Shown here piece after piece: positions 1,702 to 46,815 of a DNA stretch of 64,000 nucleotides (the first letter of the stretch is position 1; each line of letters begins with the position of its first letter). Source of the stretch: a virus (Duplodnaviria; Heunggongvirae; Uroviricota; Caudoviricetes); IMG/VR virus record IMGVR_UViG_3300037471_001079, positions 19,877 through 83,876 of that record; one strand, written 5' to 3'. A model generated the notes under the pieces. That model made no database searches and was not told the DNA's origin. It saw only the letters and a program-made list of their open reading frames with translations. Position numbers and translations under genes: made by a program.

Positions 1702-1714
1702 TTAATGTACTCGC

Positions 1715-1927
1715 TTAAACAGCCGACTTGTTGGGCGTGAAATACACAGCCGCATGCCCGACGGCGTAGGCGAACGCCATGGTAATGACGGACTCGTAAG
1801 TGGCCGGAATGTCGACGTGGAAAGAAGCCTCGACGAGGCCGATGCCGAAATTGGCAATAGTGGTTCCGAGACCGGCAGACATAAAGCCACCGATGTAGGC
1901 CTTGGCTGCAGTGAGATCAAACTTCAT
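1715..1927 (-). CDS. Small membrane protein, putative holin (70 aa, two hydrophobic segments)
   Basis: hydrophobic segments GGFMSAGLGTTIANFGIGLV and ITMAFAYAVGHAAVYF; overlaps the endolysin gene's 3' end by 11 nt. Confidence 0.45.
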   Translation of the reverse strand: MKFDLTAAKAYIGGFMSAGLGTTIANFGIGLVEASFHVDIPATYESVITMAFAYAVGHAAVYFTPNKSAV

Positions 1928-2672: not shown

Positions 2673-2968
2673 TATGGCTTCAGCTGCAAGATATTGGTCA
2701 TAAGAAAAGTGATGATGGCAGTACCGGCGACACCGAGGCCACCGATGATCATCTGTAGATATGGTTTGTTCGCGGCGATTTTCAACTCGAGAGCATTGAC
2801 CTTCTCTGTCAGCTTCTCTTGACTCTCCTCGTATTTCTTTAGGGAGTCCTTCATCGTAGTCTGCCGTTCCTCGATCAATACAAGACGGGCGATAGCGTCC
2901 GTGATCTTCTCAATTTGCTCGTCCTGGCGATCGAGTCTATCCGCCAACATATCAATCGAAACCGGCAT
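2672..2968 (-). CDS. XhlA-like lysis-associated protein (N-terminal coiled coil, single C-terminal TM helix)
   Basis: 98 aa; charged coiled-coil N-terminus, C-terminal MIIGGLGVAGTAIITFLMTNIL TM segment; sits immediately upstream of the endolysin; start overlaps the endolysin stop. Confidence 0.4.
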   Translation of the reverse strand: MPVSIDMLADRLDRQDEQIEKITDAIARLVLIEERQTTMKDSLKKYEESQEKLTEKVNALELKIAANKPYLQMIIGGLGVAGTAIITFLMTNILQLKP

Positions 2969-2997
2969 AATTAAAATGAATTCCAGGAAAATAGAAA

Positions 2998-3171
2998 CTA
3001 CTTATGAGGTATATAAGTAGGAATGCCATCTCCGAACAGCTCACGAAATTCTTCGCGAAGTTTCTTGATGATCCATTCCGACTGAGATTGCTTCGAGAGT
3101 GAGGCAAGGATCGCCAGTTTCTGGCGATCCTCTTCTGTCCCCCAGGCCGTGATCTGGTTGCGCTTCTTCAT
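2998..3171 (-). CDS. Ribbon-helix-helix (Arc/MetJ/CopG-like) DNA-binding protein, 57 aa
   Basis: MKKRNQITAWGTEEDRQKLAILASLSKQSQSEWIIKKLREEF fits a beta-strand plus two helices of an RHH fold; start re-assigned to the internal Met of the 2998..3531 ORF, forming an ATGA overlap with the upstream gene stop at 3171. Confidence 0.45.
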   Translation of the reverse strand: MKKRNQITAWGTEEDRQKLAILASLSKQSQSEWIIKKLREEFRELFGDGIPTYIPHK

Positions 3172-3707
3172 CACGCCACCAGCGGCTCGGCGATCGAGCA
3201 GATAGCGTAGACCTTGAACTTGTAGGGCGTGGTCTGCGCCGTGTTCACGGTCACGTAGACACCACTGAAGCGACCGTGCAGCGGAAGCAGGGAGTTGTAC
3301 TCGTCGACTTCGTAGTCGTACTGCTTGGTCGACCGGGTTGGCGCGACCAGCTGGATGCCGGTCTTGCCGGGGCCGGTCCAGATCTCGAACGAGAACGTGG
3401 AATCGGACGGGCCGTCGAAGTTGCTGATCCGGAGCTTCTCGATGAAGAAATCTTCGGCGCCGGTGAAGGCGATGATGGTCTCGCCGGCGGTTGCGCCGTC
3501 GACCCAACCAGACCCACCAGGCTGCTCCCACTCGAAGTGGGTGGCATCCCTGATGCCGTCCGCGTTGGTGAGCTTGATCGGGCCGGCTGAGGTAAAGGAC
3601 CGGCCGATCATCTGGCCATTGTTGTGGGCCATGTTGCCGTTGCCGACAACGGCGGCGGATGCGCCGCCGCCAGATGCCGTCGAGGGGTTGTTCAGATTAA
3701 ATCCCAT
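3171..3707 (-). CDS. Hypothetical protein (178 aa), possibly a fiber-associated structural or assembly protein
   Basis: ORF lies between the distal fiber gene and the lysis genes; Gly/Ser/Thr-rich; no motif recognised. Confidence 0.35.
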   Translation of the reverse strand: MGFNLNNPSTASGGGASAAVVGNGNMAHNNGQMIGRSFTSAGPIKLTNADGIRDATHFEWEQPGGSGWVDGATAGETIIAFTGAEDFFIEKLRISNFDGPSDSTFSFEIWTGPGKTGIQLVAPTRSTKQYDYEVDEYNSLLPLHGRFSGVYVTVNTAQTTPYKFKVYAICSIAEPLVA

Positions 3708-3719
3708 TGATGAAATTCC

Positions 3720-5930
3720 TCAGTAATAGATGGCGTGCGTGCTCGGGAACGCCCCAATGTCCGCGGCGCTGTGAGGCGCGCCGTGGTCGCGCATCCACTG
3801 GCCGACCATGTTGTAGGTGAGCGCCCCAGGCAGGACGTTGTTCAGGAAGCAGTAGGCCATCAGGATGCCGCAGGCGTTGCCGCCGGCCGCATAGCCAGGG
3901 TCGAGCCGGAGCACCGCCCAGCACGGCCGCGAGCACGAGACCGCCGCGGAGACGATCAGGTTGTCGCAGACGCCCTTCTGCGGACGGATGTTGTCGAGAC
4001 CGATACCGATGTAGCTGGCGCCCTCGAACCCATGCGGGTACTCCTGGGTGGAAAGGAGGCCGCCACCCGGCAGAACTGCATCGCGCCCATGGTGGATATC
4101 GAAGGCGTAACCTCCCCACCAGAGGGCATCGACCACCTGGTTGGTGTAAGGCCAGGTCCTGAGTGGGTCGGCCAGGTACTGCCGGTCAATGGTACCGGTC
4201 GATGTGGCGCTGAACGTCATCGGCGAGCCGGTCAGGGTCGCCTTGATCGAATAGCGGTTTGCATCGATGACCGTGTGGACGCGGTAGACCGTACCTTCTG
4301 TCACCTCGGGAGGTAGGGTGGCGCCGCTCTCCTTGGTGAACTTGACACGGAAGTTGGGCTGCAGGTTGTGGGCGGTGTCGGTGACGTAGCTGGTGACGCT
4401 CGAGAACGTGGCCGTCGAGAACGTGTCCTCGCGCTCAGGCTCGTCCTGGGCCAGCTGGTTGCCCCAAACATCAGGCCAGGTGATCACCCGCCGGCCGATG
4501 ATCCGCCGGTCGCCGCGCGTGTAGAGCAGCTCCGGCATGCCCGCGACCATGTAGTATGGCTTGTTGGTGGAGCCGTCGTACTCGTCCTTGCACAGGCCGT
4601 AGGAGGCCACGGAGTTGCGTAGAGCAGCCGGTAGCTCTGAAGCGGTGGCAGCGGTGTAGATCTTGCCGAGCCACTGGTAGTAGAACTCCCACTTCAGCTC
4701 CTCACGGCGCTCGAACGAAGCACGAGGGTATTCCCAAGCCAACCGGCCGCCGATGTCACCGGAGTTGGTGGCGAACTTGTCGAGCGGGACGCCGTTCTTG
4801 ATGATCTGGTTGGAGAACGTACCGGCGGAATAGGACTGAGTGCCGGACTGAGTGCCAGATGTATTGACAGCAGAACCACCAACTGTGGCAGATACTTGGA
4901 ACGTATCAGTGGTAAGACCGCTAGCTATGACATAGTAAGCAATGTCAGCAGTTAGCCCAGTGGGGAGTGCGCCAGTCGTAAAGAAGTAAACTTTAGCACC
5001 TGCAGTGAGACCATGGGCTGTTTTTGTAATAACTGCGGGGGATGCGATAGAGATGGTGCATTGGATGGTAGCAGTCGAGCCCTTACTGATGCCAACGGCA
5101 GCCGCCGTCGTGGCACCGGTGGCCAGCAGATAGTTGATCCACTCGCGGAAGTCGTTCTTGTTGTAGCCCGGCGGCTTGCAGTGAACATCGCCGAACGACC
5201 ACATGTTGGCCGCGGTCTGCGTGATGACCGGTCGGATATTGTACGGCTCTGTGTTGAGATCCGCCGCGTAATCAGGCGCCTCGCCAGGATACTCATACAG
5301 CTTGTAGATCGAACCGCGGCTGTCCCGGAGAGTGGTGGTGGCCTGGACAGTGCCGTTGATGAAGTCCTGGTTGCCGCCAACGAACTCGTTGTACTGGGAG
5401 CGACCCTCTCGGACGCTCGACATGAAGCCGCCCGAGACAGCGTAGAGATCGCCGAGTGGCGAGCAGTCGACCCAGAGGCCGGACGTGATCACCGTCTCGG
5501 TGTTGTCGTCGCGGTTCTTGAACGTGATCGAGGTGAAGCCGTTGGTGTCCTTGCGGACGGAATCTTCCAGTATCTGCTCGCGGTACATGAAGGTGACGGA
5601 CCCCTGAGTGAGGTCCGCCAGCATGTCGTCCATGACCGACTGGGCGTCGGCAGGCAGGAACCACTTCACCGACGGTGGACCGTTGAGGGCATTGGCCGCC
5701 GGGTAGTTGAACTTCTGGATCAGGCGACCCATGAACTCGTTGTAGCGGCCCCAGTGAGCGTGACCCTGTGCGGCCTCGTCAGACCCGAAGATCTGCGTGG
5801 CCATCATGCTGCCCCTGGTCGCGTCAGGGCCGATGCATAGCGCGTCGCCCCCGGTCAGTTCGGCGAAGTCCAGGGCACCGAAAAAGGCACCCATGGTCGT
5901 GTCATAAAATACGCAATCAAATGCTGACAT
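3720..5930 (-). CDS. Large (736 aa) tail fiber or tailspike-like protein, possibly carrying an enzymatic (depolymerase) domain
   Basis: position distal to the J-derived fibers; size; Thr/Ser/Gly-rich central repeats; no specific catalytic motif identified. Confidence 0.4.
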   Translation of the reverse strand: MSAFDCVFYDTTMGAFFGALDFAELTGGDALCIGPDATRGSMMATQIFGSDEAAQGHAHWGRYNEFMGRLIQKFNYPAANALNGPPSVKWFLPADAQSVMDDMLADLTQGSVTFMYREQILEDSVRKDTNGFTSITFKNRDDNTETVITSGLWVDCSPLGDLYAVSGGFMSSVREGRSQYNEFVGGNQDFINGTVQATTTLRDSRGSIYKLYEYPGEAPDYAADLNTEPYNIRPVITQTAANMWSFGDVHCKPPGYNKNDFREWINYLLATGATTAAAVGISKGSTATIQCTISIASPAVITKTAHGLTAGAKVYFFTTGALPTGLTADIAYYVIASGLTTDTFQVSATVGGSAVNTSGTQSGTQSYSAGTFSNQIIKNGVPLDKFATNSGDIGGRLAWEYPRASFERREELKWEFYYQWLGKIYTAATASELPAALRNSVASYGLCKDEYDGSTNKPYYMVAGMPELLYTRGDRRIIGRRVITWPDVWGNQLAQDEPEREDTFSTATFSSVTSYVTDTAHNLQPNFRVKFTKESGATLPPEVTEGTVYRVHTVIDANRYSIKATLTGSPMTFSATSTGTIDRQYLADPLRTWPYTNQVVDALWWGGYAFDIHHGRDAVLPGGGLLSTQEYPHGFEGASYIGIGLDNIRPQKGVCDNLIVSAAVSCSRPCWAVLRLDPGYAAGGNACGILMAYCFLNNVLPGALTYNMVGQWMRDHGAPHSAADIGAFPSTHAIYY

Positions 5931-9987: not shown

Positions 9988-12390
9988 TCAAACCCACGAA
10001 ATAACTAGTCTTTTCTCCAAACTGGTTCCGATCTTGCGATTGACTGTTGTCGCACGCAGACTGGTGACAGCATCAGGCGGATCAGTTGGAGTGGAATGAT
10101 CTTGATCAGTAGAACTGGTGTATCCAAGGATCAGAGGAAACTTGTTTCTATTGACGAACGAGGCTGAAATTTGAATCTGATCGGTGTCATCATCTTTCGG
10201 TTCTATCGACAGAACACGATAAGGAAGTGGAACACCGGACTGACTGCCGGCGCTCTCCAGCGTGAACAGAGCGAACTCAGGAAGGAAGTCGATGCCGGGG
10301 CTGTAGGTCAGCTCCCTGGTCATCGGGTTGTAGCCGGTGACCGTTGCCGTCTCGACTTCCAAGCCAATCTGGAACCTGATCTGGTAGGTGAAACCCGGCT
10401 CCATCGAGATCGGCGCCGCCACGATGACGGCGGTCGAGGTCAGCTGCTCGGAGATGCGGCCGGAGATCCCGGTGTTCGAGTCCGGGTCAGCAATCAGGAT
10501 GATCTGGTAGGGCTTGAGATAGAGCCCCTGCCGGTTGGTGGTGAAGGTCACCATCCGGGTTTCGGTCGTGGCCGAGATCGCCTTGGAGTAGGCCCGACGG
10601 TAGGCCTCGGCAGCGTCAATGCAGCCGACCGCGGTGAAGTCGGTCGGGATCAGGCCGTATTTGGCGATGTGGTCGTCGAGCTGGAGCCGCCGGCGGTCTT
10701 CGTTCCAGTTGAGGTCGGGGTTCTTGAACCGGACGATGATGTCGTTGTAGCGGGTCGCAATGTCCGTGTACGAGTAGGAGAACAGGCCGTTCTCCACGTT
10801 CTCCGGCGCGAAGATCGCCACAGCCGGGTCGTTGGCGTCGAGCAGGATCTCGGCGTAGCCGTTGCCGTCGTCGACAAACCGGCCACCGAAGATGCCGCAG
10901 ACGTAGTCGATCAGATCAGAGCCTGGCTGGGCGTCGCTGAGTGTGCCGTTGAAGGTGAACAGCGGCTTGCCGCCCACCATGGTGTCGCAGAACTGGCCCG
11001 CCGCGTAGACGGTCCACTTGTTCAGGACGCAGGGATAGTAGGCGTTGAGACCGTACCGGTCGTTCATCACCAGGTCGTTGACGATGAAGGCCGGGTTGTC
11101 GGTCCAGGCCAGCTTCCAGGTCCCGTCCCAAATACCCGTATATACGCGGGTATCAGGGTTGTAGTTGGTGGGCACATTGACGATGCGACCCCACCAGATC
11201 CCGCTCATATTCTGGACCGAAGGGAACTGGTCGCTAGCCTGCACGAAGATGCGAGCACACGCCAGGTTCGGGAAATTCAGAGGTTTCGAAGACACCTCTT
11301 GAAAACTCTCCCACTGGATGTTCAGGAAGTAGTTGTTGTCGTGGTCCTCCATGTTCTTGACGGTGACACGCATGTCATAGGTGTCATCGATATTGGCGAC
11401 CGCCCAGCGAAGCTCCTTGACGAACGGCTCCTGGATCTTACCGGTGATCCGCAGATACTCGTCGGACGAGACAGTGTAACCGTTGGTCGGGTTGTAGGAC
11501 TGGGAATACTGCCACGCTTCGTTGGTGAAGATCATCACGACCACGCGGCCGGCGTCGGCCGGGTTTGCGGGGTTGATGTCGGTCGTGATCCAGAAGTCAC
11601 CCTCCACACCGGCGGGGGTGGTGGTCTGGTTGTAGAAGGCGTGGGTGGTGGTGCCTGTCTTGGGAGACGTGAAGGTCCACTTACCGGTTGTGCTGGTTAG
11701 ACCGGCAGCGTCGACCCAGGCCGAGCCGGACCAGATCTTCGGTCTGTAGCTGACAGCCGAGTTGAACCAGATGGCGTGATCCGGGATCTGGGCGGCCGGC
11801 GTCGTCGGCGTGGTCGACGAGATCAGCGTGTCGACGTCCCAGTAGGATGAGGGGACGGAGTCACCGTCGGTGCCGAGATGGGTGGAGTCGTCGGTGGTGT
11901 CGATCTCATCGACAAGGGTCGGGTTCTCCAGATAGGTCGCCACCGGCAGCCAGGTCGAGGAGGTCGTCGCCTTGTACTCAAGCTTGACGTCCACGTAGGT
12001 GGATTGGGGACCCTTCTTCTCGCTGTTGGCGTAGAGCTGGTTGATCAGCAGCCGCAGCTCGAGGAAATCGATGTTGCGATGCGTACCGGTGCGGACGACC
12101 GGCGTGCCCATGGCCAGCTCGGTGTTGACGCTGGTCGGCGACGAGGAGCCGCCAAGCTTCAGCTTGATGTTCGGCGGCTCCGGGATGCCCTTGAAGACTT
12201 CGAGCTCGAATGAGACGAAGTTCGACTTGTTGTCGATGTTAACGAGCGGCGTGTCGCCGACAAAGAACTCCTTGGCGCCGCCTTTCAGGCCCAGGATAGG
12301 TCCCTCGGAAATGCCGAGGACCATCTCCATAACATCGTTGGACTCTGCAATGGCCGGCTGGTTCTGGACGTTAACGTTGAAACTAGCCAT
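9988..12390 (-). CDS. J: Tail tip / host-specificity protein, homolog of the N-terminal ~800 aa of lambda gpJ
   Basis: blocks match remembered lambda J: LGISEGPILGLKGG vs ISEGPIEGPVDGL; RIVNVPTNYNPDTRVYTGIWDGTWKLAWTDNPAFIVNDLVMNDRYGL vs RILQVPSNYNPQTRQYSGIWDGTFKPAYSNNMAWCLWDMLTHPRYGM; follows the gpI homolog. Confidence 0.7.
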   Translation of the reverse strand: MASFNVNVQNQPAIAESNDVMEMVLGISEGPILGLKGGAKEFFVGDTPLVNIDNKSNFVSFELEVFKGIPEPPNIKLKLGGSSSPTSVNTELAMGTPVVRTGTHRNIDFLELRLLINQLYANSEKKGPQSTYVDVKLEYKATTSSTWLPVATYLENPTLVDEIDTTDDSTHLGTDGDSVPSSYWDVDTLISSTTPTTPAAQIPDHAIWFNSAVSYRPKIWSGSAWVDAAGLTSTTGKWTFTSPKTGTTTHAFYNQTTTPAGVEGDFWITTDINPANPADAGRVVVMIFTNEAWQYSQSYNPTNGYTVSSDEYLRITGKIQEPFVKELRWAVANIDDTYDMRVTVKNMEDHDNNYFLNIQWESFQEVSSKPLNFPNLACARIFVQASDQFPSVQNMSGIWWGRIVNVPTNYNPDTRVYTGIWDGTWKLAWTDNPAFIVNDLVMNDRYGLNAYYPCVLNKWTVYAAGQFCDTMVGGKPLFTFNGTLSDAQPGSDLIDYVCGIFGGRFVDDGNGYAEILLDANDPAVAIFAPENVENGLFSYSYTDIATRYNDIIVRFKNPDLNWNEDRRRLQLDDHIAKYGLIPTDFTAVGCIDAAEAYRRAYSKAISATTETRMVTFTTNRQGLYLKPYQIILIADPDSNTGISGRISEQLTSTAVIVAAPISMEPGFTYQIRFQIGLEVETATVTGYNPMTRELTYSPGIDFLPEFALFTLESAGSQSGVPLPYRVLSIEPKDDDTDQIQISASFVNRNKFPLILGYTSSTDQDHSTPTDPPDAVTSLRATTVNRKIGTSLEKRLVISWV

Positions 12391-13261
12391 ACTTCAATTG
12401 CAACTTGAACATACTCATAAAAGAATGATCGAGAATTTCTCCGTCCTTTAATATAAGATCGAAGACGCCATAAGTCCAACCGGTGGTGTTGTGCTTGGCG
12501 TAGGCCTCGACATGCTTGTCCGGCATGGCCGAGCCGACGTTCAGAATGGTGATCTTCTTGTTGAGGCCGATCTTCTTGGCGTTTTTGACGTTGGCCACAT
12601 GGGTGTGACCAAAGACGATCGAGTGGATGGCGTCGTTGGCGATCTGGTTCTCGGGCTGCTTGCCGCCATAGGGCTTGCCCATCGTGTTGAACGGCGCGTG
12701 GGTGAAGCCGACGCCGTCGATGAAGACCCAGTCGCCATAGTCGACCGTGGACCAGTCGTGGTCGTGCATCAGGCCGGTCACCCGGCAGTAGAAGTCATCC
12801 TCCACTTCCGGGTGGGCGTTCTCCCAGAGCTTCACCCGATGCTCGTGATTGCCGAGCGTCACATGCTTCTCGGGATCGTACGTAAGCTCTCCATCCAGCA
12901 ACGAGAGCGCTTGTTCGCCGCTCTCCAAATCGGCCAGGAACGACGGCTTCTTCCTGCCAGATATCGTCCCCCACTCCTCGTGCCGGCTGCAGCTGTCCAT
13001 CGTCAGCAGATCGCCGATCTGGACGACGTGATCGGGCTTGGTCTCGTTGATGTGCCGGCCGATCCAGGTGAACCGCCTTTTGTCCTTTAGGTGCGGACTG
13101 TCGTGACTGTCTCCGATGACGCATACCGAAGTGTAATCTTTCTCAGATTTGAGACGACGGCGTAAGGTTCTCTCGGAGATTTGATGACCGATCGAACGGA
13201 GGTAACGCTCAGCAGCACGTATAGAGCCGCAATCTGCAATAATTTTCTCATAATCCATCAC
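12383..13261 (-). CDS. N-terminal HTH domain fused to a calcineurin-like metallophosphoesterase, inserted between the gpI and gpJ homologs
   Basis: metallophosphoesterase motifs GDSHD, GDLL, GNHEH, GHTH in canonical order; N-terminal IIADCGSIRAAERYLRSIGHQISERTLRRRL resembles an HTH. Confidence 0.6.
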   Translation of the reverse strand: MMDYEKIIADCGSIRAAERYLRSIGHQISERTLRRRLKSEKDYTSVCVIGDSHDSPHLKDKRRFTWIGRHINETKPDHVVQIGDLLTMDSCSRHEEWGTISGRKKPSFLADLESGEQALSLLDGELTYDPEKHVTLGNHEHRVKLWENAHPEVEDDFYCRVTGLMHDHDWSTVDYGDWVFIDGVGFTHAPFNTMGKPYGGKQPENQIANDAIHSIVFGHTHVANVKNAKKIGLNKKITILNVGSAMPDKHVEAYAKHNTTGWTYGVFDLILKDGEILDHSFMSMFKLQLKYG

Positions 13262-13785
13262 GAAACAATAGCCATTGCATCAACGTCAAATGAAAGAATG
13301 TGACCGGCCCATTTATCACGGCCGTAAATAATTGCTATCGGCGTACCGATATCGACTGTATTTTCGTTCGACCCTAGATAGTGGTTTTTCTTTGGACCGT
13401 CTGCTTTCGGTGACGGCTGCAGGTAGGACATGATGCCGCCGAGCACCATCAGTGCGCCGGACAGGATCAGATTGACGTTACCGGTGAAGATGCCGACGAT
13501 GATAAGGGCGACACCGATCAGGATCTGGATGAAGCCGCCGGACTTGCCGCCAGCGAACTGGGGAACGATGTCGAGCTCGGTGACCGCCAGGGGTTTGAAG
13601 AGGTCCTCAAAGGTCTCGTGGCCGACGACGGCCACGCGCTTGTAGCCGTTGATCGGATCGGGCCGGAAGCCGGGGAGCTGCCGGGAGATCGCCTCGACCG
13701 CCTCGGCAGCGGTCGCCGCGTTGATGACGATCGGTTCCGGGTGGATAGCCTTGAGCGAGCCGTGCAGGCGTATCGTTATACGCAC
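13258..13785 (-). CDS. I: Tail assembly protein, lambda gpI homolog
   Basis: AGGKSGGFIQILIG and MVLGG match lambda I (AGAKSGGVFQIVLG...MVLGG); ubiquitin-like N-terminus, hydrophobic C-terminus. Confidence 0.65.
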   Translation of the reverse strand: MRITIRLHGSLKAIHPEPIVINAATAAEAVEAISRQLPGFRPDPINGYKRVAVVGHETFEDLFKPLAVTELDIVPQFAGGKSGGFIQILIGVALIIVGIFTGNVNLILSGALMVLGGIMSYLQPSPKADGPKKNHYLGSNENTVDIGTPIAIIYGRDKWAGHILSFDVDAMAIVS

Positions 13786-14159
13786 TCGATCACCTGCCCG
13801 GTTTCATGAACAACGTAGCAGCGGATGCCATCGGAGCCGATGATGTAGTGGGTGAGCTCGGGCCAGGCCCTGAAGGCCAAGTCGTCCCTGAGGCTCATGC
13901 TCGCGGTCTTGCCAGGATGGGTGTGCCAAGTGGCGTCGGCGGTGAGCCCATACGAAAACAGGTCCGAGGCGCTCACCTCGAACCCGTCAGTTGGATCTTT
14001 TGCCTTGTTCTCGACCTCGATCAGGGTGAGGTCTGGCATGATGAAGCCGACCCGCTCAGGCCCTTCCTCGCTGTAGAGCGAGAGCAGCTTCGAATTGAGC
14101 TCGTTTAGCTGGTGAGAGGAGATCCAGGATGTTGGTGCGCTCGGACTGGTCGGATGCAT
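13776..14159 (-). CDS. JAB/MPN+ (JAMM) metalloprotease domain protein, corresponding to the N-terminal half of lambda gpK encoded as a separate ORF
   Basis: JAMM motif HTHPGKTASMSLRD (HxHx7Sx2D) with an upstream Glu; true start may be the internal Met at ~14039, since the long ORF overlaps the NlpC/P60 gene by 104 nt. Confidence 0.6.
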   Translation of the reverse strand: MHPTSPSAPTSWISSHQLNELNSKLLSLYSEEGPERVGFIMPDLTLIEVENKAKDPTDGFEVSASDLFSYGLTADATWHTHPGKTASMSLRDDLAFRAWPELTHYIIGSDGIRCYVVHETGQVIECV

Positions 14160-14550
14160 TTACAACAGAGGGATGTCTTAAATGAGCAACTATGAAATTA
14201 CGCCAGCCCGCAAATGGCTCGACGCGCGACAATCTATTCCAGAGATGGTGTAGGATCTGGCCATTTTCAAGTAGAATCACAGCGTGGTTGGCCACTGTCG
14301 ACTGGATCGCCAAGAGAAAAGCATCGCCAGGGCGCCAGAACGTCGGGTGTTCATCCACTACATCGAAGCCTTCCTTGTAGAAGTTTTCCATGTAGAGGTT
14401 CTTGCCCTCGTCCCACCACTTGGAATCGTGCGGGTAGTCCGCAAGGACCAGGCCGTAGTTGTCCTTGTAGAACCTCTGGACCAGGGTGTAGCAGTCGTTG
14501 ACGCCGTGCTCGAAGGGGATGCCCTGCAGATGGTCGACCTTGAGCATCAC
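14056..14550 (-). CDS. K: NlpC/P60 peptidase domain protein, corresponding to the C-terminal half of lambda gpK
   Basis: FEHGVNDCYTLVQRFY / DSKWWDEGKNLYMENF / NHAVILLENGQILHHL match lambda K C-terminal region (FEHGVTDCYTLFRDAY / EDDWWRNGQNLYLDNL / NHAAIYCGDGELLHHI). Confidence 0.7.
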   Translation of the reverse strand: MMLKVDHLQGIPFEHGVNDCYTLVQRFYKDNYGLVLADYPHDSKWWDEGKNLYMENFYKEGFDVVDEHPTFWRPGDAFLLAIQSTVANHAVILLENGQILHHLWNRLSRVEPFAGWRNFIVAHLRHPSVVNASDQSERTNILDLLSPAKRAQFEAALALQRGRA

Positions 14551-15038
14551 AGGCTCACAGATGGGAAGCCGCCATCCGGCGTGTAGGTCCGCACCGGCAG
14601 CTGGAAGTTGACACCCTCGGACATGGCGCGCAGCTCCAAGGTCACGCCTTGGTTGGCGATGGCTTCAGGAACGCGGCCGACACGCCACATGCGCCGGTTG
14701 GCGATGTTGATGTCCTTGTCGATGTGGGCGCCGAGCACCTCGTACCGGATGACAGTCGCCAGATCGAGGAGGTTGTCGTGCAGGAACGGGTTGAAGATGC
14801 CGAACGGGTTGGCCACACGGAGCGTCGGCTTAGCCTCCTGGCCGTCGGCGGCACGCTTGTCGCCGGAGAACTGGATGGCGCAGCTCTCGAAGAAGATCTT
14901 CTGCCAGGTCGTCGACGGGCCGTCCTTGATGTAGATGGAGGTGCCCGGCGACATCTTGAGGTGGATCGCCCAGAGAGGGACGACTGCATCGGCCGTGAGT
15001 TTCTGACTCTCGGCAATGTGTTCAACAGGTGCTGTCAT
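14547..15038 (-). CDS. L: Minor tail protein, lambda gpL homolog
   Basis: VVPLWAIHL and KPTLRVANPFG resemble lambda L VVLWEIDL and KPTLTVSNLYG; located between M-like and K-like genes. Confidence 0.55.
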   Translation of the reverse strand: MTAPVEHIAESQKLTADAVVPLWAIHLKMSPGTSIYIKDGPSTTWQKIFFESCAIQFSGDKRAADGQEAKPTLRVANPFGIFNPFLHDNLLDLATVIRYEVLGAHIDKDINIANRRMWRVGRVPEAIANQGVTLELRAMSEGVNFQLPVRTYTPDGGFPSVSL

Positions 15039-15430
15039 TGAGGTTGGGCTTGAATGAGCTTGATCGAGAAAGGTTCGACGGCGCCATTACCCTTCGCGAT
15101 GCCCTTCATCGGAGGCAAGGGCTCAGCGAAGCGCACGACTTGCTGGCCCCAGACAGGATGATTGTAGATGAACGGCTCGTAAAGCTGATGTGTCTCGTAA
15201 AATATTTCCAGCCTGAGAGCATTAACCTCCGGCCAGATACCGGCGTCCGGATTTCCGAGTGCATTCTTGAAATAGACCATCGTCGTAAAATCCAGAATGA
15301 AAGTCTTCTGGATTGGGTCTCGAGGTTTTGACGTGAAGGCCCAGCCGCCGCCGAACTGCATCTTGGCAGAGTTATCGTTTCGGGCTATTGAAACAATATG
15401 ATACGGAAAATTGAAGACTGATAAAGCCAT
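15035..15430 (-). CDS. Minor tail protein (gpM-position, distal tail protein); start re-assigned to the internal Met
   Basis: position between the tape measure and the L homolog; start moved from 15487 to 15430 (MALSVFNF...) so it no longer overlaps the oppositely oriented lipoprotein gene. Confidence 0.45.
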   Translation of the reverse strand: MALSVFNFPYHIVSIARNDNSAKMQFGGGWAFTSKPRDPIQKTFILDFTTMVYFKNALGNPDAGIWPEVNALRLEIFYETHQLYEPFIYNHPVWGQQVVRFAEPLPPMKGIAKGNGAVEPFSIKLIQAQPQ

Positions 15431-15526
15431 GGTGAATATATAAGAAGGACTGTCTTGCAGGCAACCCCCTTGCGCCGACTCGGACAACCACTATGTTGGT
15501 CGGCCGGAAGCGCAAGGGAGCTGGGA

Positions 15527-15883
15527 ATGAGACGAATTGTTTTGGTAGCGTTGATGTTGGCGGGGTGTCAGACGACCGCGGAGGTAAACCGGCCGCTGGC
15601 GCCGCCTCCTGCTAACTGGAGGGCTCAAGTAGCGGCTGCTATGAAGGCCAGTCTATTCGATCCGTATTCGGTTCGTGAGGCCGCTGTCACTGAGCCACAC
15701 ATATCAAGCTATACCCATGGTTGGCAGGTCTGCGTCCTGGTGAATGCCAAGAATCGACTTGGAGGTTATACAGGAAGACAAGCTTCAATTTGGTCGTTGT
15801 ATGACGGAAACTGGATCAATACCTCAGGTGATCGGTGTTATGATCCAGTTGGTCCCTTCCCCGAGCTAGGACCTACCACTTAG
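15527..15883 (+). CDS. Lipoprotein moron (118 aa) on the strand opposite the tail operon; candidate superinfection-exclusion / receptor-masking protein
   Basis: signal peptide with lipobox MRRIVLVALMLAGC-QTT; strong SD AAGGGAG 8 nt upstream of the ATG; inserted between the H-like and M-like tail genes and convergent with the tape-measure gene. Confidence 0.6.
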   Translation: MRRIVLVALMLAGCQTTAEVNRPLAPPPANWRAQVAAAMKASLFDPYSVREAAVTEPHISSYTHGWQVCVLVNAKNRLGGYTGRQASIWSLYDGNWINTSGDRCYDPVGPFPELGPTT

Positions 15884-18800
15884 GCGCCGCCGACCTGAAC
15901 CTGCTTGATCAGAGTGCGGATGGCACCCTTCGACTGAATGTCCCGAGCGATGACGTGGACGATGTCCTTTGGCCCGGGGACCGGAACATCGTCCGGCGGG
16001 ACCACATAGACGTTCACGTTGTCGGGCTGGCGCGACTGGATCGGCTGGATGTTGCCCTGGCTGATGTGCCGGTTGCCGAGCGCGTTGATCTCGTCGAGGT
16101 TCTTCTTGCCGATCGCCTGCACCGCAGACTGACGCAGGATGTACTCACCCTGCTGGGCCAGCACCAGGGTATCATCACGCGTCGAGCGAGCTCCGCCCGC
16201 AGCGCGGATCATGCCGGGGATCGAGCCGCCGAGAGCCCGCCGTATATAGAGGCCGTTGGCGGCGGCCGGCACTGGTGCAGCCGCTGCAGCTCCAGATGCG
16301 CCCCCGCCGAAACCTGGAAGCAGGTTGAAGAGACTGTCGACCAGTTTGTCGGCCAGACGCTTGGCGATCACGTTCTGAATGGACGAGATGATGCTGGTCG
16401 CAAAACTCTTAATGGCGTCCTTGGCCTTCATCGAACCATTAGCCAGGTTCTTGAACAGCTCCGCGAACGAGTTCGACAGATCGCCGACAACCTGCTGCAT
16501 GTCGGAGAGGTTGCGGGTGTCGGTGAAGCCTCCGAACCCTCGACCATCGGTATCGATGCCGGCGTTCTGCTGGAAATTCCCGCGGGCGCCTGATAGCAGA
16601 CCGGTGAAGGTAGAGGGGTTGTTAGGACCCTGAGTGCTGAGGGCGTTTTGCTTCCCCTTCTCGCCGGTGATCTGAGCTTCGAGCTCAGCGATCTTGCTCA
16701 GCAGCAGCTGCTTCTGCTCGGCATCGAGGTTGCCGCCCTTCTCCAGCTGGGCCTCGCGCTCCTTGAGCGCCGTCGTCTCGGCCTGCAGGGTCTTGATGTG
16801 CTCAGCCCGGACCTCGTCCTCGATGCCGAGCTTCTGCTTCTCCAGGTTGGTTCGGTCCTGGTCACTGTACTGGGCCGAGAAGCGGGGGTCGCTGGCGCGC
16901 TGGATCGTGGCGTTGACCTGGTCGAGCTTCTGCTGAGACACCTTGTCCTGAGAGGCGGCCAGATCATCATAGAGTTTGATGATGTTATCGATCGCCTTGG
17001 TCTGCAGCTCACGACGCTTGTCTTCGATCTGGCTCTTCTTGTCGTCTTCGGTCAGATCCGGGTTCTTCTGGATCTTGTCGATCTCAGCCTGAATGATCTT
17101 GCTCTGCAGATCATCATAGCTGCCGATCAGCTTCTTGATGTCGTCCGGCGTGGCGCCTTTGGCGCTGGAGATCAGACTATCAAGGGCGCGCTGGTCTGCA
17201 GCCTCTTGGCGATCCAGGGTCTTCTTCAGATTGCTGAAGGTGTTAGTGGCCCCAGCCTTGGCCGTGTCTGCATTATCCTTGGCATCCTTCTCCTGCTGTG
17301 CCTGGAGCGTCGCATCCTTCTTGGCGCGGTCGAGCTCGGCCGGCGAGGTGACCACGTTGAGGATCGGGTTGATGCCCTTCTCCTCGAACGTCTTCGACAA
17401 CTTCTGCAGGACCTGGGCAACGGTATCGTTGGGATTTAGACCATTTGCCTCCAGGTTCTTCGGCTTGACGACAGAACCGGCGCGGGCGTTAGGGTCCGCC
17501 GTCAGCAGAGCTGTGGAGCCTTGCTGATGGAGCACATACCGGTTGAAGTCAGTGACCTGCAGGCCAGCATCCTGCAAAGCCTTATCGTTGGCAGCAGTGA
17601 ACTGACGCATCAGCTCGACCTGCTTCTCGACCGACAGCGTGAACTTGCCGGAGAGGATGTCGGCCTTCAGACCGGCAACATCCTTGATGCCGAGGAGCCC
17701 GGCCAGAGTGGACGGGATAAACTGGAACAGACCGTAGGCGGCCGAAACACCGCCACCAGGGAGAGGTGTCCGATTGACGGCGTTCGGGTTCCGACCGGAC
17801 TCGAATTGCGCCGCCTCCAGGAAGTAGCGGTCGCCACCGGCTCCCTCCAGGATCTTCCTATCGGTCTCGCTGGCGTTCTGGTTCGGCACCGCCGTGTTGA
17901 AGCGGCTCGCGTTGAACGGGCCATTCTGGCTGGCGATATCCTCCAGCACCTTGAGGCGCTGCTGGATCAGATCGTCGATCTTCCGCATCAATTCCTTAAA
18001 CCTGGCCGAGGTGTCGGGCAGGCTCTTGGCCTCGTCGCGGAGCTTGGAGATTTCGGCGTCGAGCGCGTCCTTCTTCGCGGTGAGCGAGCGCTCGAACTCT
18101 TTGATGATCTGTTTCTGCTTCTCACCCTGGTCGGCGATCAGGTCGAGGTTGATTTTCTCGCGCTCGTCGTCGCGTTCTTGTAGCTGAGCGTCGAGAGCCT
18201 CCTGCTCGTCGGACGTCAGCTTCTGGCTCCCCGGCCGGAGCTTAGCCAGCAACGTATCCAGCTCCTTGAGCTGGTCGAAGTAGCCGCCGATAGAGACCTG
18301 GATAGCCTTACTGGTCGAGGCATCGCCAGCCTTGGCCTGGGCGACGGCCAGCTGGATCTGCTTCTGCAGAGCCTTCTTCTGAGCATCGATCGAGGCCTTG
18401 GCGGCCTTGAAAGCGGCTTTCTCATCGCCGAGCGACAGGATGCTGCTCGTGATCTTTGCCATCTCATCCGGGATGCCGGTGCTGCGGATGAGGCTCTCGA
18501 TTTCCTCAGGCGTCTTGCCTTGGCTCTGGAGCTGCAGCCGCACGTCATCGAGAGCGGCCTGGAGGATGTTGATCTGGTTCTTGGTCTCTTCCAGCAGCTT
18601 GTCGCGCTCGGTGATCAGGCCCCGGGCGTCCTTGGCCACGTCAGAGTTGACCAGGCTCAGGACCTGCGTGCGAACCTGGGCGGCCAGGCTCTGGACCTGC
18701 TGGTCGACACCAAGCGTCTGCTGCTTGACCTTCGCCTGCTCTACGGCCTGTGAGGTGGTCTCCTGCTGCTTCTGGTTCAGCTGCTGCTCGCGGGCGCCGG

Positions 18801-21800
18801 CGCGTTGGGCTTCCAGGCCGTTCAGCAGCTGCTGGAACTGCTCGATCTTCCTGACGTCTTCCGCGCCGTTGCCGCCAAGCTGTTCGCTCAGGTCCTTGAA
18901 CTGATTGAACTGGGCCATCAATTGCTTGACAGCAACGACGCCCTTGGTGATGTCATCGTCGGTGAAGTTCTTAGTGACACCGGTGGCGATCTCGAACGCC
19001 TTCCTGATGTCCGGGCCGAATGTCTGCTCCAGACCCTTCGGGATCGCAGCCTTTACCTCTTCAGGGGTCAGAGGCCGCGTGACGTTGCTGTCCCGAACCG
19101 CGGTCACGGCGTAGGGAGCGAACGTCTTGTTGAGAGCAGGCGTCTGCTGCTTGAGGTTTTCCTCAACCTTCTTCGCCAGTTGCTCGTCCAGGAGCTGCAG
19201 GTCGATCAGCTTCTCACGCAGCGCACCGGGGATATCCGCCTGGAGCTTGCCTTCGAGCTTCTCCAGGGCCGTGATCAGGTCGCCAATCGAGCCGGTTGTG
19301 CCCTGGAATTCCAGGCCGAGATCAGCGAAGGCGTTCTTCACCTCGATGATCTTGGTCTGCTTCATGATCGGGTCGTTCTCCAGCTGGGCGCTGCGCGCGT
19401 TGAGCTGGTCGATCGTTTCCCGTATCCTGGCGATCGCGTTCGTCTTCTCCGAGATCGTGCCTTCGACCTCGTTGAGCTTGCCCTTCAGCTTGTCGATCTT
19501 CTCGGCCGTTGTCTCGACCGAGCCGCCCCAGTTGAGGAATCCGATCGCCACAGTTGCCAGGAGGCCAAGGATGACGCCAAATGGGCCGCCGAGGAAGCTG
19601 ACGGCCCTGGAGAGCAGACCGACGGCGCCGGCGGCTTCGGTCACCGCGCCGGTGACGGCCGGCACCGCAGCCGCAACGGCGCCGGCCCCTCGGGTCAGGC
19701 CAAGGAAACCGCCGGCCAGCGAACCAAGAGCGCCTAGAATCTTGGTGGTGGTGAAGGCTGCGAACAGGCTCCCGATGACCGGCACCACGTAGGGGATCTG
19801 GTTCGCAGCGGCGATCACGTTGGTGAGACCGGTCGCGACGAGCTTCAGAGTCTCCAGGAACGGCTTGAACGCATTGTAGGCCGCGGTTAGGACCGTGGAC
19901 CCGAGCTTCGCCATGATGCTGGCGAAGCTCTCCATGTTGGTGGCCGCGGCCTGGGTTGCAGCCTGGGTCAGGGCGAACTGCTGCTCCAGGTTCTTGGCCG
20001 CTTCCAGGTTGTTGTTCAGGGCCGAGTAGGCCTGGACCGCGCGGACCTCGAAGGTCTGGAAGGCGTCCGCGGTGGTGAAGCCCTTCTTGTTCAGGTTGTC
20101 GAGGACCCCGACCAGGCCGTTGGTCTTGAGGTCGATGTCGGCCAGGGTGATGCCGAGCTTGTCGAAGGTGGTCTTCGCCTTCTCGGTCGGGTTCTGGAGA
20201 TCGATGAAGAGCTGGCGCAGGCCGGTGCCAATCGTCGAGCCTGACCGGATGCCGGCGTTGGACAGGGCGCCGATCGCGGCTATCAACGAGGTGTAGTCCT
20301 CGCCAGCGTCCTTGGCGATGTTCGAGGAGTACTGCAGCGCCGTCGACAGCTGATCCATAGTCAGCTTGGTCGAGTTCAAGGCCTGCGTCATCACGTTGGC
20401 GATCTGCGCGATCTCCGGACCCTGGAGATCGAACACGTTGAGCAGGTTCGTCAGCACGTCGGTAGACTGCTGCAGCGTCGAGCCCGAGGCCGAGGCCAGG
20501 TTCAGGACCGCCGGCAGAACATCGGTCACCTGCTTGGCGGACAGACCAGCCTGGCCGAGGGTGGTGGCGATGCCGGCCACCTCGCTGGCAGTGAACTTCG
20601 AGGCCTGGGCGACGGCGAGCAGGTCCTTCTCGAACTGGCCCATCTGCGACTGGGACGTCGCCGTGATGGCCTGGAACTGCTTCAGGTTCTTATCGAGCTC
20701 GACGATGCCGCTGATCAGGCCGTAGACGCCGCCGAAGGCGCCACCGATCAGGGCGTAGTCGGCGATGTTGCTGAACCGCTCAGCCAGTAGTGGGGCGCCA
20801 CCCTGGAAGTTCCGGCGAGCCTGCTGGAACTGCAGCTGGCTACCGACACGGTCTTCCAGCGTCCGCGGTGCAGCGGCGTTGGCCATCTTCTCTCTGGCGG
20901 CTGCTTCCCGCTCCGCGGCCTGGGCTGCCTTGCGATCGGCGGCCTCCTTGATCTTGTTGAGCCGGAGCTGCTCCTGGTAGGTCGCCAGCAGTTGGGTCTG
21001 CTCTTCCTGAGACTTGGCGAAGAATTCATCAGGTGTCAGACCAAGCGCCTTGATCGCCGTACTGGTGCGAATGTCACGGCGAGCGGTGCTCAGGCCGCGA
21101 GCATTTTCACGATTGACGTTGCCCTGGCCGGTGAAGTTCTCAATCGTCTGGGAAAGTGTGTCCGCTTCCTTGGTGGCTCGCGCCTTCAGGAAGGTCTGAG
21201 CGTTAAGGCCGGCAGCTTCGAGCTGCTTGTTGAGTTTCTCTTCTGCCTCGGCCGCACGCTGGGCCTCCCTGGCGCGCCGCTGCTCGGCCTGGAGCCGACG
21301 CTCGGCCTGGCGCAGAATCGCCTTCTTGGCGGCGTCATCCTTATCGGCAAATTCCTGATCGGTCATATTGACCGTGCGGAGGAGATCCTGCCTTCGGTTG
21401 TCGGTGCGAGCTCGGTTGAGCCCCTGCTGAGCCAGGGTGCCGCTCAAGTTGGTGACGAACTTGTCGACCAGCTGGCCGATGTCGTTGTTGAGCTTGGTGA
21501 AGCGGGCCTGCAGGACCTGCGACTGAGAATTGAGCTGTGCCTGGGTCTGCTGGAAGAGCTGGTTGGTGGTGTTCGCCCGAATGTTATCGGTGGAGGCGCC
21601 GGGCGACTTGAGGGTACTGATCTGGAGCTGGCCGAGGCCTTTCTGGAAGGCTTTGCCCTGCAAGGTGGAGAGTCGCTCAATCTGAGAATTGAGCGACTGC
21701 AACTGCTTGGTCAGGACTTCGACCTGCTTGGCAGCACGTTCGGCTTGAGTCTCGGTTGTTCCGAGGTCTAGATTTACGCCAACATTAATATCGTCGTCAG

Positions 21801-21804
21801 CCAC
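15880..21804 (-). CDS. H: Tail tape measure protein (1974 aa) with an embedded lytic transglycosylase (SLT) domain
   Basis: size; long coiled-coil (Q/A/E/K/L-rich) regions; position after the G/GT chaperones; SLT-like AAQFESGRNPNAV...AAYGLFQFIPST block near the C-terminus. Confidence 0.8.
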   Translation of the reverse strand: MADDDINVGVNLDLGTTETQAERAAKQVEVLTKQLQSLNSQIERLSTLQGKAFQKGLGQLQISTLKSPGASTDNIRANTTNQLFQQTQAQLNSQSQVLQARFTKLNNDIGQLVDKFVTNLSGTLAQQGLNRARTDNRRQDLLRTVNMTDQEFADKDDAAKKAILRQAERRLQAEQRRAREAQRAAEAEEKLNKQLEAAGLNAQTFLKARATKEADTLSQTIENFTGQGNVNRENARGLSTARRDIRTSTAIKALGLTPDEFFAKSQEEQTQLLATYQEQLRLNKIKEAADRKAAQAAEREAAAREKMANAAAPRTLEDRVGSQLQFQQARRNFQGGAPLLAERFSNIADYALIGGAFGGVYGLISGIVELDKNLKQFQAITATSQSQMGQFEKDLLAVAQASKFTASEVAGIATTLGQAGLSAKQVTDVLPAVLNLASASGSTLQQSTDVLTNLLNVFDLQGPEIAQIANVMTQALNSTKLTMDQLSTALQYSSNIAKDAGEDYTSLIAAIGALSNAGIRSGSTIGTGLRQLFIDLQNPTEKAKTTFDKLGITLADIDLKTNGLVGVLDNLNKKGFTTADAFQTFEVRAVQAYSALNNNLEAAKNLEQQFALTQAATQAAATNMESFASIMAKLGSTVLTAAYNAFKPFLETLKLVATGLTNVIAAANQIPYVVPVIGSLFAAFTTTKILGALGSLAGGFLGLTRGAGAVAAAVPAVTGAVTEAAGAVGLLSRAVSFLGGPFGVILGLLATVAIGFLNWGGSVETTAEKIDKLKGKLNEVEGTISEKTNAIARIRETIDQLNARSAQLENDPIMKQTKIIEVKNAFADLGLEFQGTTGSIGDLITALEKLEGKLQADIPGALREKLIDLQLLDEQLAKKVEENLKQQTPALNKTFAPYAVTAVRDSNVTRPLTPEEVKAAIPKGLEQTFGPDIRKAFEIATGVTKNFTDDDITKGVVAVKQLMAQFNQFKDLSEQLGGNGAEDVRKIEQFQQLLNGLEAQRAGAREQQLNQKQQETTSQAVEQAKVKQQTLGVDQQVQSLAAQVRTQVLSLVNSDVAKDARGLITERDKLLEETKNQINILQAALDDVRLQLQSQGKTPEEIESLIRSTGIPDEMAKITSSILSLGDEKAAFKAAKASIDAQKKALQKQIQLAVAQAKAGDASTSKAIQVSIGGYFDQLKELDTLLAKLRPGSQKLTSDEQEALDAQLQERDDEREKINLDLIADQGEKQKQIIKEFERSLTAKKDALDAEISKLRDEAKSLPDTSARFKELMRKIDDLIQQRLKVLEDIASQNGPFNASRFNTAVPNQNASETDRKILEGAGGDRYFLEAAQFESGRNPNAVNRTPLPGGGVSAAYGLFQFIPSTLAGLLGIKDVAGLKADILSGKFTLSVEKQVELMRQFTAANDKALQDAGLQVTDFNRYVLHQQGSTALLTADPNARAGSVVKPKNLEANGLNPNDTVAQVLQKLSKTFEEKGINPILNVVTSPAELDRAKKDATLQAQQEKDAKDNADTAKAGATNTFSNLKKTLDRQEAADQRALDSLISSAKGATPDDIKKLIGSYDDLQSKIIQAEIDKIQKNPDLTEDDKKSQIEDKRRELQTKAIDNIIKLYDDLAASQDKVSQQKLDQVNATIQRASDPRFSAQYSDQDRTNLEKQKLGIEDEVRAEHIKTLQAETTALKEREAQLEKGGNLDAEQKQLLLSKIAELEAQITGEKGKQNALSTQGPNNPSTFTGLLSGARGNFQQNAGIDTDGRGFGGFTDTRNLSDMQQVVGDLSNSFAELFKNLANGSMKAKDAIKSFATSIISSIQNVIAKRLADKLVDSLFNLLPGFGGGASGAAAAAPVPAAANGLYIRRALGGSIPGMIRAAGGARSTRDDTLVLAQQGEYILRQSAVQAIGKKNLDEINALGNRHISQGNIQPIQSRQPDNVNVYVVPPDDVPVPGPKDIVHVIARDIQSKGAIRTLIKQVQVGGA

Positions 21805-22195
21805 CTAGTATACCTGCCAATGCCATTTCCATATCCGTCACAGAACTAACTACTTTGTCCGGTTCCGGTTTTGATTTACTATTTTTTTCACTTCCAAATA
21901 TATTGCTCGCAATAATGGCGAGGTTCTCAAAATCTTGATTTACTCTGACCGCCTCAAATTCGATCTTGAGGCGGGTCATAACTCGTAGGTCGTTGATGGA
22001 GTGCGACCAGTAGATGATGTCGAGGTCACTCGGCTTGCAGCCGAGCGACCAGATTATGATGTCCTGCCAGCTACGCTTTTCGAGCCATCGAGAGAGGCAT
22101 TGAGGCCCTTCATTCGATCCTCTTCCTGCTTGTACAGGGCGGTCGTCTTCTCGAGCCTGCTCAGAAAAAAACCAAGGACATGCTCCTTGGCCCAA
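21797..22195 (-). CDS. T: Tail assembly chaperone -1 frame extension (gpT-like); expressed as a G-T fusion by programmed frameshift
   Basis: overlaps the G-like ORF over 22054..22195 in the -1 frame; lies between the major tail and tape-measure genes; contains a U7 slippery run. Confidence 0.6.
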   Translation of the reverse strand: MGQGACPWFFSEQAREDDRPVQAGRGSNEGPQCLSRWLEKRSWQDIIIWSLGCKPSDLDIIYWSHSINDLRVMTRLKIEFEAVRVNQDFENLAIIASNIFGSEKNSKSKPEPDKVVSSVTDMEMALAGILGG

Positions 22196-46768: not shown

Positions 46769-46815
46769 GGGAGCGCCACTAACATCGTTTTTGCCTTTTC
46801 AAGGATTGCAACGCA

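Follow-up and report, generated by a model that had tools for sequence, protein, structure and literature searches.

An antisense phrog_2320-family lipoprotein gene beside the tape measure gene of a siphophage, and the position of its relatives

The lipoprotein gene and its setting in the late block

The window analysed here, a 64,000-nucleotide stretch of a tailed-phage genome, carries a minus-strand late block of ~32 kb (97-32709) that starts with terminase, portal and major head genes, continues with the tail genes and finishes with the tail tip, fibres and endolysin (Table 1). The first tail-tip gene after the tape measure protein (TMP) gene, called M-like here by its position, belongs to a PHROG family of unknown function, and its homologues lie directly 3′ of the TMP gene in Caulobacter phage Seuss, Achromobacter phage JWF and Xylophilus phage Lumi. 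L comes after the M-like gene, and beyond it lie an NlpC/P60 ORF and a JAB ORF, I, a metallophosphoesterase gene and J. Between the TMP and M-like genes we found a lipoprotein ORF on the plus strand. An earlier, sequence-only reading of the window had placed an ORF at this junction and on the strand opposite the late operon, and our analysis bears out both points: all other credible genes in 97-32709 are on the minus strand, and this is the sole plus-strand ORF of the late block to fall in a gap, instead of lying across from a gene on the minus strand.

Together with Achromobacter phage 2-1, the three phages named above are distant relatives of this phage, sharing 46-50% identity in the major head protein and 38-42% in the M-like protein. 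Megablast of positions 13000-19000 against 50,697 phage records gave no match. A temperate lifestyle is plausible, since the window encodes a tyrosine integrase and a relative is resident in an Inquilinus limosus genome (locus L091).

Table 1. Coordinates and supporting evidence for features of the window discussed in the text
Feature	Position	Strand	Details
L	14547..15038	-	After the M-like gene
M-like gene (by position)	15035..15430	-	131 aa; phrog_34212, E 3.3e-34; first tail-tip gene after TMP
Spacer separating the start codons of the divergent M-like and lipoprotein genes	15431..15526		96 nt
Inserted segment	15431..15879		~449 bp; extra compared with related phages, whose TMP stop adjoins the M-like start
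Long imperfect inverted repeat (hairpin)	15462..15523		Inside the 96-nt spacer
Shine-Dalgarno sequence AAGGGAG	15514..15520	+	6 nt 5′ of the lipoprotein ATG
Lipoprotein CDS	15527..15883	+	118 aa; ORF and translation, phrog_2320 match, homologues
Tape measure protein (TMP) gene	15880..21804	-	1974 aa; PF10145 PhageMin_Tail, E 1.8e-35; phmmer match to other TMPs
Endolysin gene	1917..2672	-	Late block
Tyrosine integrase gene	62883..63974		PF00589, E 1e-22

The translation of the lipoprotein ORF begins MRRIVLVALMLAGCQTT, and its signal sequence is MRRIVLVALMLAGC. It comprises an n-region (MRR), an 8-residue hydrophobic core (IVLVALML, mean Kyte-Doolittle 3.5) and a lipobox, L-A-G-C, at residues 11-14, of which Cys14 is the predicted lipidated residue. 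The lipoprotein signal described in the sequence-only reading is thus present, yet the signal peptide (residues 1-13) is unusually short. The mature protein would have 105 residues, ~11.5 kDa and a computed pI of 6.9. Also as described earlier, the gene has a strong Shine-Dalgarno sequence of its own. Its TAG stop codon overlaps the TAA of the convergent TMP gene as TTAG (15880-15883), and on its other side the M-like gene starts with an ATG at 15430-15428, so that the locus as first delimited, from 15431, begins at the first base of the spacer. The same reading had the longest ORF of the M-like gene overlapping the lipoprotein gene, which does not hold: that ORF, which extends to 15487, meets only a TTG-extended form of the plus-strand ORF (from 15455) and not the lipoprotein CDS.

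Comparison with relatives identified the segment that carries the gene as an insertion. In Seuss, JWF and Lumi, the three annotated genomes, the end of the TMP gene abuts or overlaps the start of the M-like gene. An M-like profile supplied 25 more loci: in at least 12 of these the two genes are -1 to 42 nt apart, and the few wider gaps are filled by a 117-aa gene on the same strand or by duplication or extension of the M-like gene. A lipoprotein gene was found at this junction in none of the relatives examined. Because the TMP and M-like genes abut in relatives, the additional ~449 bp in the window are an insertion. Its size is approximate: a genome-contig scan with the M-like profile returned only 2 loci, the best at 44% identity, and so gave no close relative by which to set its ends or gauge selection. 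The composition of the lipoprotein gene is foreign as well. Its GC3 of 0.504 is the lowest among the 17 window genes scored (others 0.59-0.90), against 0.82 for TMP, 0.84 for L, 0.90 for the major head gene and 0.73-0.90 for most late genes; the M-like neighbour, at 0.59, is also low. A 21-nt direct repeat (15343/15882) was considered as an insertion scar and rejected, since it falls within the M-like gene and conserved Q-[FV]-G-G motifs are encoded by its two copies.

Because its strand opposes the late operon, the lipoprotein gene would have to be transcribed apart from it. No plus-strand sigma-70-like promoter scoring at least 9/12 was found for the gene, on rules that may not be those of the host. 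The best plus-strand promoter-like site scores 8/12 (TTATCG-19-TATGAT from 15372, with a 19-nt spacer) and lies inside the M-like gene, and any dedicated promoter must be either within 15431-15526 or in the M-like gene. Likewise, no intrinsic terminator-like site was found in 14500-16800, on either side of the gene; because the lipoprotein and TMP stop codons overlap, any termination of a lipoprotein transcript must be inside the TMP gene, for example via Rho.

The spacer holds a long imperfect inverted repeat. As minus-strand RNA, in the sense of the late operon, this hairpin folds at a dG of -44.4 kcal/mol (z -4.35; none of 200 shuffles was as good), and as plus-strand RNA it is much less stable relative to shuffles (z -1.55). 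Its 3′ arm includes the lipoprotein Shine-Dalgarno sequence, which can be sequestered. We considered and rejected the hairpin as an intrinsic terminator, as it has no U-tract on either strand. The window holds no second copy of the hairpin core, and an Rfam scan of 14800-16500 returned no family.

These results bear on the label of moron that the sequence-only reading had given to the gene. In the summary of Juhala et al. (2000) given in PMC3594210, a moron is an extra gene between otherwise adjacent genes, with a composition that differs from theirs; a promoter and a terminator of its own and expression from the repressed prophage are named there as further hallmarks. The insertion and the atypical GC3 (0.50) agree with the label; of the transcriptional hallmarks, no promoter was recognised and no intrinsic terminator was found.

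The phrog_2320 family and its linkage to tape measure genes

The lipoprotein matched phrog_2320, a family of unknown function (E 6.7e-14, residues 4-90). We found 18 database homologues at 33-46% identity (E down to 7.6e-14), mostly from alphaproteobacteria (Stappia, Roseibium, Mesorhizobium and Brucella/Ochrobactrum), and tblastn matched Rhizobium phage P106B gp46, Klebsiella phage KPP5665-2 GP14 (6e-5) and Salmonella phage ES18 gp20 (3e-6). A profile run exhaustively against 1.84 billion cluster representatives returned 7277 at E ≤0.001 and 1042 at ≤1e-10. Among 5.8 billion proteins there was no relative of more than 46% identity to the window lipoprotein, and an exact-sequence look-up found it not to be on record.

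Across 22 aligned homologues, the lipobox Cys is invariant. So are, in the family, D45, P46 and S48 of an FDPYSVR motif and N73, N76, G79, Y81 and G83 of an NAKNRLGGYTG motif; C69 and C104 are near-invariant, and an FPEL motif is also common to the homologues. The window lipoprotein keeps all invariant and near-invariant residues, including C14 and Y47. Given the phrog_2320 match, the homologues, the 7277 cluster representatives and the retention of these residues, ORF 15527..15883 is a genuine gene and not a chance ORF. Taking the sequence and the junction together, we are highly confident that it is a real, intact and horizontally acquired member of the phrog_2320 family, inserted antisense between the TMP and M-like genes.

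We found a lipobox in 149 of 164 family representatives, and in 137 of these 149 the mature part has exactly two Cys. Because both features are conserved in the family, the mature lipoprotein is probably exported and disulfide-bonded (Cys69-Cys104). In E. coli, lipoproteins without Asp at +2 are sorted to the outer membrane, a rule that may not hold for this host. None of the 149 lipobox-bearing representatives has Asp at +2, and because the family never has it, the protein is most likely tethered to the outer membrane, on its periplasmic face.

The family is large and has neither domain annotation nor known function. Pfam and NCBIfam searches with the lipoprotein and its homologues gave no family, only signal-peptide noise, and a sequence-profile search of the PDB gave nothing past signal peptides. 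In PADLOC-DB, the window lipoprotein hit only PbeC at a noise-level E of 0.095, and three homologues hit nothing. E. coli RefSeq labels for genes like ES18 gp20 read only 'putative periplasmic lipoprotein' or 'hypothetical', and our literature searches found no published papers on lipoproteins of the phrog_2320 type. An AlphaFold2 model built from 19 sequences (mean pLDDT 84.7, pTM 0.73) predicts a disordered tether, a helix at residues 31-42 and a four-stranded antiparallel sheet. Foldseek matched this model to nothing in the PDB at E ≤0.001 and to a single unnamed 220-aa protein in BFVD (E 3.5e-4); the predicted fold offers no functional pointer.

Members of the family are linked to TMP genes. 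Scanning IMG/VR, we found relatives in at least 178 viral contigs and kept 80 loci; the viral lipoproteins were dereplicated at 60% identity into 38 clusters, and TMPs were detected by phmmer. In about half of the loci a long ORF lies directly alongside the lipoprotein ORF. When such neighbours were scanned against PHROGs, the same-strand downstream ones were TMPs in 9 of 9 tested and the opposite-strand ones in 7 of 9, the other two being a tail fibre and a DNA polymerase. A TMP gene lies within 112 bp of the lipoprotein gene in 11 of the 38 clusters, within 650 bp in 13 and within 5 kb in 18. These adjacent cases span at least nine TMP PHROG families, and the Pfam types of the TMPs include PhageMin_Tail, TMP_3, Tape_meas_lam_C, one with Phage_lysozyme2 and several unmatched. 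At a chance of 0.03-0.08 per junction, a binomial calculation puts the probability of at least 11 in 38 at 1e-8 to 1e-4, with the rate assumed and the clusters not fully independent. In aggregate, members of the family adjoin TMP genes of unrelated types at a rate far above that of chance placement.

The linkage takes several forms. In ES18, Klebsiella and other phages the lipoprotein gene is on the same strand as the TMP gene and just 5′ of it. In alphaproteobacterial phages it sits in antisense orientation immediately 5′ of the TMP gene, separating that gene from the chaperone gene, an insertion that is recurrent (L012 and L037). In a third arrangement (L046) the two genes share a strand and the lipoprotein gene is the 3′ one. 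To these three, seen in the clusters, the window contributes a fourth, in which the lipoprotein gene is antisense and follows the 3′ end of TMP. Besides the window, the lipoprotein gene is antisense to the late operon in seven clusters.

Other members lie away from TMP genes. The P106B copy follows the DNA polymerase gene, among replication genes; others sit in islands with resolvases, integrases and defence genes, in a Mu-like phage, at prophage ends, adjoining TerL, or between portal and integrase genes. The closest homologues occur throughout in phage or mobile-element contexts, with no core-genome neighbourhoods among them. The adjacency to TMP genes may mirror tolerance of insertions at such sites, without a functional link. 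What is new here is the linkage across the family, and it is the part worth testing.

Known systems at comparable positions

The nearest named relative of the window gene is ES18 gp20, annotated as 'possible moron; function unknown', just upstream of the TMP gene and flanked on both sides by annotated terminators. ES18 gp20 and KPP5665-2 GP14 belong to the same family as the window lipoprotein, with the lipobox, DPxS and NAKNxxGGYxG common to all three, and like the window gene they are single extra genes touching a TMP gene. They differ from it in sharing the strand of the TMP gene and adjoining its 5′ end, in the chaperone/TMP gap, whereas the window gene runs antisense and adjoins the 3′ end; identity to the window lipoprotein is only ~27-38%. 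A further ES18 gene, gp22, occupies the same slot in the same orientation, as an antisense 'possible moron' in the gap between TMP and gpM, so the position and orientation of the window gene have a precedent. As a homologue gp22 was rejected: it is unrelated, with an N-terminal transmembrane helix and neither lipobox nor family motifs. TMP-gene boundaries are known hot spots for unrelated morons, with ES18 gp18-20 and gp22 and HK97 gp15 as examples.

HK97 gp15 is a moron between the tail chaperone and TMP genes whose product blocks genome entry; it is expressed from the prophage, and the block depends on the tail of the incoming phage (PMC3594210). Like the window gene, gp15 is an extra tail-operon gene that directly adjoins the TMP gene, and its product is envelope-located. 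It differs in that its product is a small YebO-related protein of the inner membrane and no lipoprotein, and in that it lies on the same strand as the tail genes; no sequence relationship between the two proteins was detected, and none was expected.

The sequence-only reading had drawn its comparison with Llp of T5 and Cor of phi80 and N15. These receptor-blocking proteins too are small phage lipoproteins whose genes adjoin tail or host-specificity genes: T5 llp, which is expressed early, adjoins and diverges from the receptor-binding protein gene oad/pb5, and phi80 cor lies inside the tail-fibre region. The likeness does not extend to kinship. By hhalign, the alignments with phi80 Cor and with T5 Llp (T5.158) each cover 22 columns, all of them signal peptide, and no Cor-annotated PHROG was matched. 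The mature parts of Cor and Llp have ~60 residues, against 105 in the window lipoprotein. Cor and Llp are absent from the fold-search matches listed, in libraries that may not include a structure of either.

By analogy, the closest functional model for a TMP-directed action is Ltp of Streptococcus thermophilus phage TP-J34, a prophage-expressed lipoprotein that targets the TMP of the incoming phage and blocks DNA injection (Bebeacua 2013, as cited in PMC3952083). Ltp acts in a Gram-positive host and is surface-exposed, unlike the window lipoprotein, which has no match to the Ltp family in Pfam. The Ltp fold is all-helical, and the ltp gene belongs to the lysogeny module, away from the TMP gene. 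With ES18 gp22, HK97 gp15, Cor, Llp and lambda Bor as precedents, an antisense lipoprotein moron in a tail operon is ordinary phage biology.

Candidate roles of the lipoprotein

Our preferred reading is that the lipoprotein is expressed independently of the late operon and excludes superinfecting phages, at the receptor or at the tail-tip/TMP step; position and analogy across the family suggest this role, to which we assign a probability of roughly 40%. On this proposal, a Seuss/JWF-like siphophage acquired a moron-type cargo gene horizontally, in antisense orientation, at the junction of its TMP gene with the first tail-tip gene. Its product would be exported through the Sec and signal-peptidase-II route, and its mature domain of ~105 residues, a helix packed on a four-stranded antiparallel sheet with probably one disulfide, would be anchored on the periplasmic face of the outer membrane. 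Transcribed separately, most likely in the lysogen, it would exclude superinfecting phages at the envelope by interfering with an outer-membrane receptor from the periplasmic side or, alternatively, by hindering the passage of tail tip and tape measure through the periplasm. Adjacency to the TMP gene would keep the exclusion gene linked to the matching entry machinery, the same logic as that of T5 llp beside its receptor-binding protein gene. Given the precedents of T5 llp, HK97 gp15 and Ltp, an entry block genetically linked to a matched tail gene appears the most economical reading.

Other roles account for parts of the same evidence. The lipoprotein might instead serve lysogenic conversion or host fitness with no part in exclusion, its TMP adjacency marking permissive insertion sites. 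An envelope-stress or serum-resistance factor in the manner of lambda Bor would be one example; a protein with a cystatin- or NTF2-like scaffold that binds or inhibits a target in the periplasm would be another. The size of the family (7277 cluster representatives), its copies in bacterial islands and beside non-tail genes, and the many unrelated morons at tail-operon junctions in the ES18 annotation all fit such a role. Yet at least nine TMP PHROG families and four arrangements exceed what permissiveness alone would lead one to expect, and the closest homologues are all in phage or mobile-element contexts; we regard a fitness role as somewhat unlikely. A further idea, that the protein acts in the periplasm to inhibit a muralytic domain of the TMP, was rejected, as few of the adjacent TMPs, a minority, had such a domain detected. 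Improbable, to our mind, is a role in the lytic cycle, in which the protein would guard progeny from ejection onto debris or infected cells, in the 'lytic conversion' style of T5 Llp, or aid the passage of the phage's own tail and TMP. Most enterobacterial members lie on the same strand in the chaperone/TMP gap and could be co-transcribed late, the P106B copy lies among replication genes, and T5 llp adjoins and diverges from its tail gene; however, in the window and in seven other clusters the antisense gene would be met by late transcription in collision and not expressed by it, and a lipoprotein with a signal peptide is an unlikely assembly factor for a tail built in the cytoplasm.

The gene might also be an inert passenger, acquired and now unexpressed or decaying, with no current function. 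The lack of a recognised promoter or terminator, the low GC3, a Shine-Dalgarno sequence that can pair inside the hairpin and the short signal peptide point that way, and the 5.8 billion proteins offered no relative above 46% identity for a test of purifying selection. Against decay stand the full-length ORF, the retention of C14, D45, P46, Y47, S48, N73, N76, G79, Y81, G83, C69 and C104, the strong Shine-Dalgarno sequence at ideal spacing and the confident AlphaFold2 model, and we think an inert gene quite improbable. That the protein is an outer-membrane spanin subunit encoded outside the lysis cassette we consider very improbable indeed. No lipobox ORF of at least 40 aa lies beside the endolysin gene, which would leave room for a distant one, but the lipoprotein gene is 13 kb away on the opposite strand and has no adjacent or embedded ORF for an inner-membrane spanin partner; its predicted product is a folded 105-aa alpha/beta domain and not a short proline-rich peptide, and its homologues are single genes beside TMP genes or in islands, outside lysis cassettes.

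Extended from the window to its relatives, the exclusion reading would make phrog_2320-type lipoproteins a widespread Gram-negative class of exclusion proteins that act at the periplasmic TMP/tail-tip step, counterparts of Ltp whose genes stay linked to TMP genes so that specificity travels with them. In this general form we hold the proposal to be speculative and rather unlikely. If the linkage reflects insertion tolerance only, the window gene is one more uncharacterised cargo gene. If it is functional, it would point to a new mechanism of exclusion, directed at the crossing of the periplasm by tape measure and DNA, which is the least understood step of siphophage infection, and it would account for numerous 'hypothetical lipoprotein' genes carried by prophages of Salmonella, Klebsiella, E. 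coli and alphaproteobacteria. The added value of this locus lies in its family, with its thousands of members and its linkage to unrelated types of tape measure gene.

Base composition, a hairpin and a repeat around the lipoprotein gene

Compared with the tape measure protein (TMP) gene (GC3 of 0.82), we observed low GC3 in two neighbouring ORFs, the M-like gene (15035..15430, minus strand; 0.59) and a small ORF on the far side of the TMP gene (0.49). Given these values in both flanking ORFs, the foreign segment may reach past the lipoprotein gene; alternatively, the small ORF may be the frameshifted part of the chaperone.

As plus-strand RNA, the long hairpin next to the lipoprotein gene has a z of -1.55; as minus-strand RNA, the sense of the late mRNA, it is far stronger (dG -44.4, z -4.35). 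The hairpin has no U-tract, no second copy within the window and no match in Rfam, and its possible roles are mRNA processing, mRNA stability or translational control. A 21-nt direct repeat was also considered as an insertion scar, which it probably is not. Both copies encode Q-[FV]-G-G-[GA], at residues 24-30 of the M-like protein and at the TMP C-terminus, and these conserved motifs probably resemble each other by chance.

Features described in this part (window positions unless stated)
Feature	Position	Strand	Description
98-aa coiled-coil ORF	2672..2968		C-terminal hydrophobic segment; just upstream of endolysin gene
Metallophosphoesterase gene	12383..13261	-	PF00149/PF12850, phrog_221; between tail genes I and J
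JAB/MPN ORF	13776..14159	-	second part of split lambda-K equivalent, after NlpC/P60 ORF
NlpC/P60 ORF	14056..14550	-	first part of split lambda-K equivalent
21-nt direct repeat	15343..15363 and 15882..15902		81% identity; copies 539 nt apart
Long hairpin	15462..15523		spacer between M-like and lipoprotein genes; contains lipoprotein Shine-Dalgarno
Small ORF	21797..22195	-	directly upstream of TMP gene
Three ARAGORN tRNA/tRNA-like genes	43120..43197, 44886..44962, 46703..46778		
Lipoprotein-family member	6001..6399 of L039	same as TMP gene	~2 kb upstream of TMP gene, amid head-tail genes

Tail-tip genes and the tape measure protein

Gene order points to the metallophosphoesterase gene, whose GC3 of 0.75 is typical for the phage, as what looks like a second insertion in the tail-tip module, this one on the same strand: I directly adjoins J in the distantly related phages JWF and Seuss. 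The window shares with JWF the two-gene NlpC/P60 and JAB/MPN layout, here with a 104-nt overlap, in a domain order that is the reverse of that in lambda gpK. Within TMP, by-eye inspection picked out a transglycosylase-like stretch at about residues 1290-1330 (…AAYGLFQFIPSTLAGL…), and the JWF homologue is annotated 'putative lysin'; Pfam at E <= 0.001 returned only PhageMin_Tail for TMP.

Lysis and early regions

Beside the endolysin gene (1917..2672), region 1650..3720 contains no lipobox-bearing ORF of at least 40 aa, so no spanin gene was found there. For the early region, ARAGORN reported one normal tRNA-Glu(CTC) and two tRNA-like genes, both with abnormal anticodon loops (a 4-nt anticodon in one, 2-nt in the other).

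The lipoprotein family in a related phage

L039, an IMG/VR viral locus (IMGVR_UViG_3300044996_000405), encodes a TMP related to that of the window (phmmer E 3.6e-93), and its lipoprotein gene lies elsewhere, upstream of the TMP gene; the family was therefore acquired at different sites by related phages.
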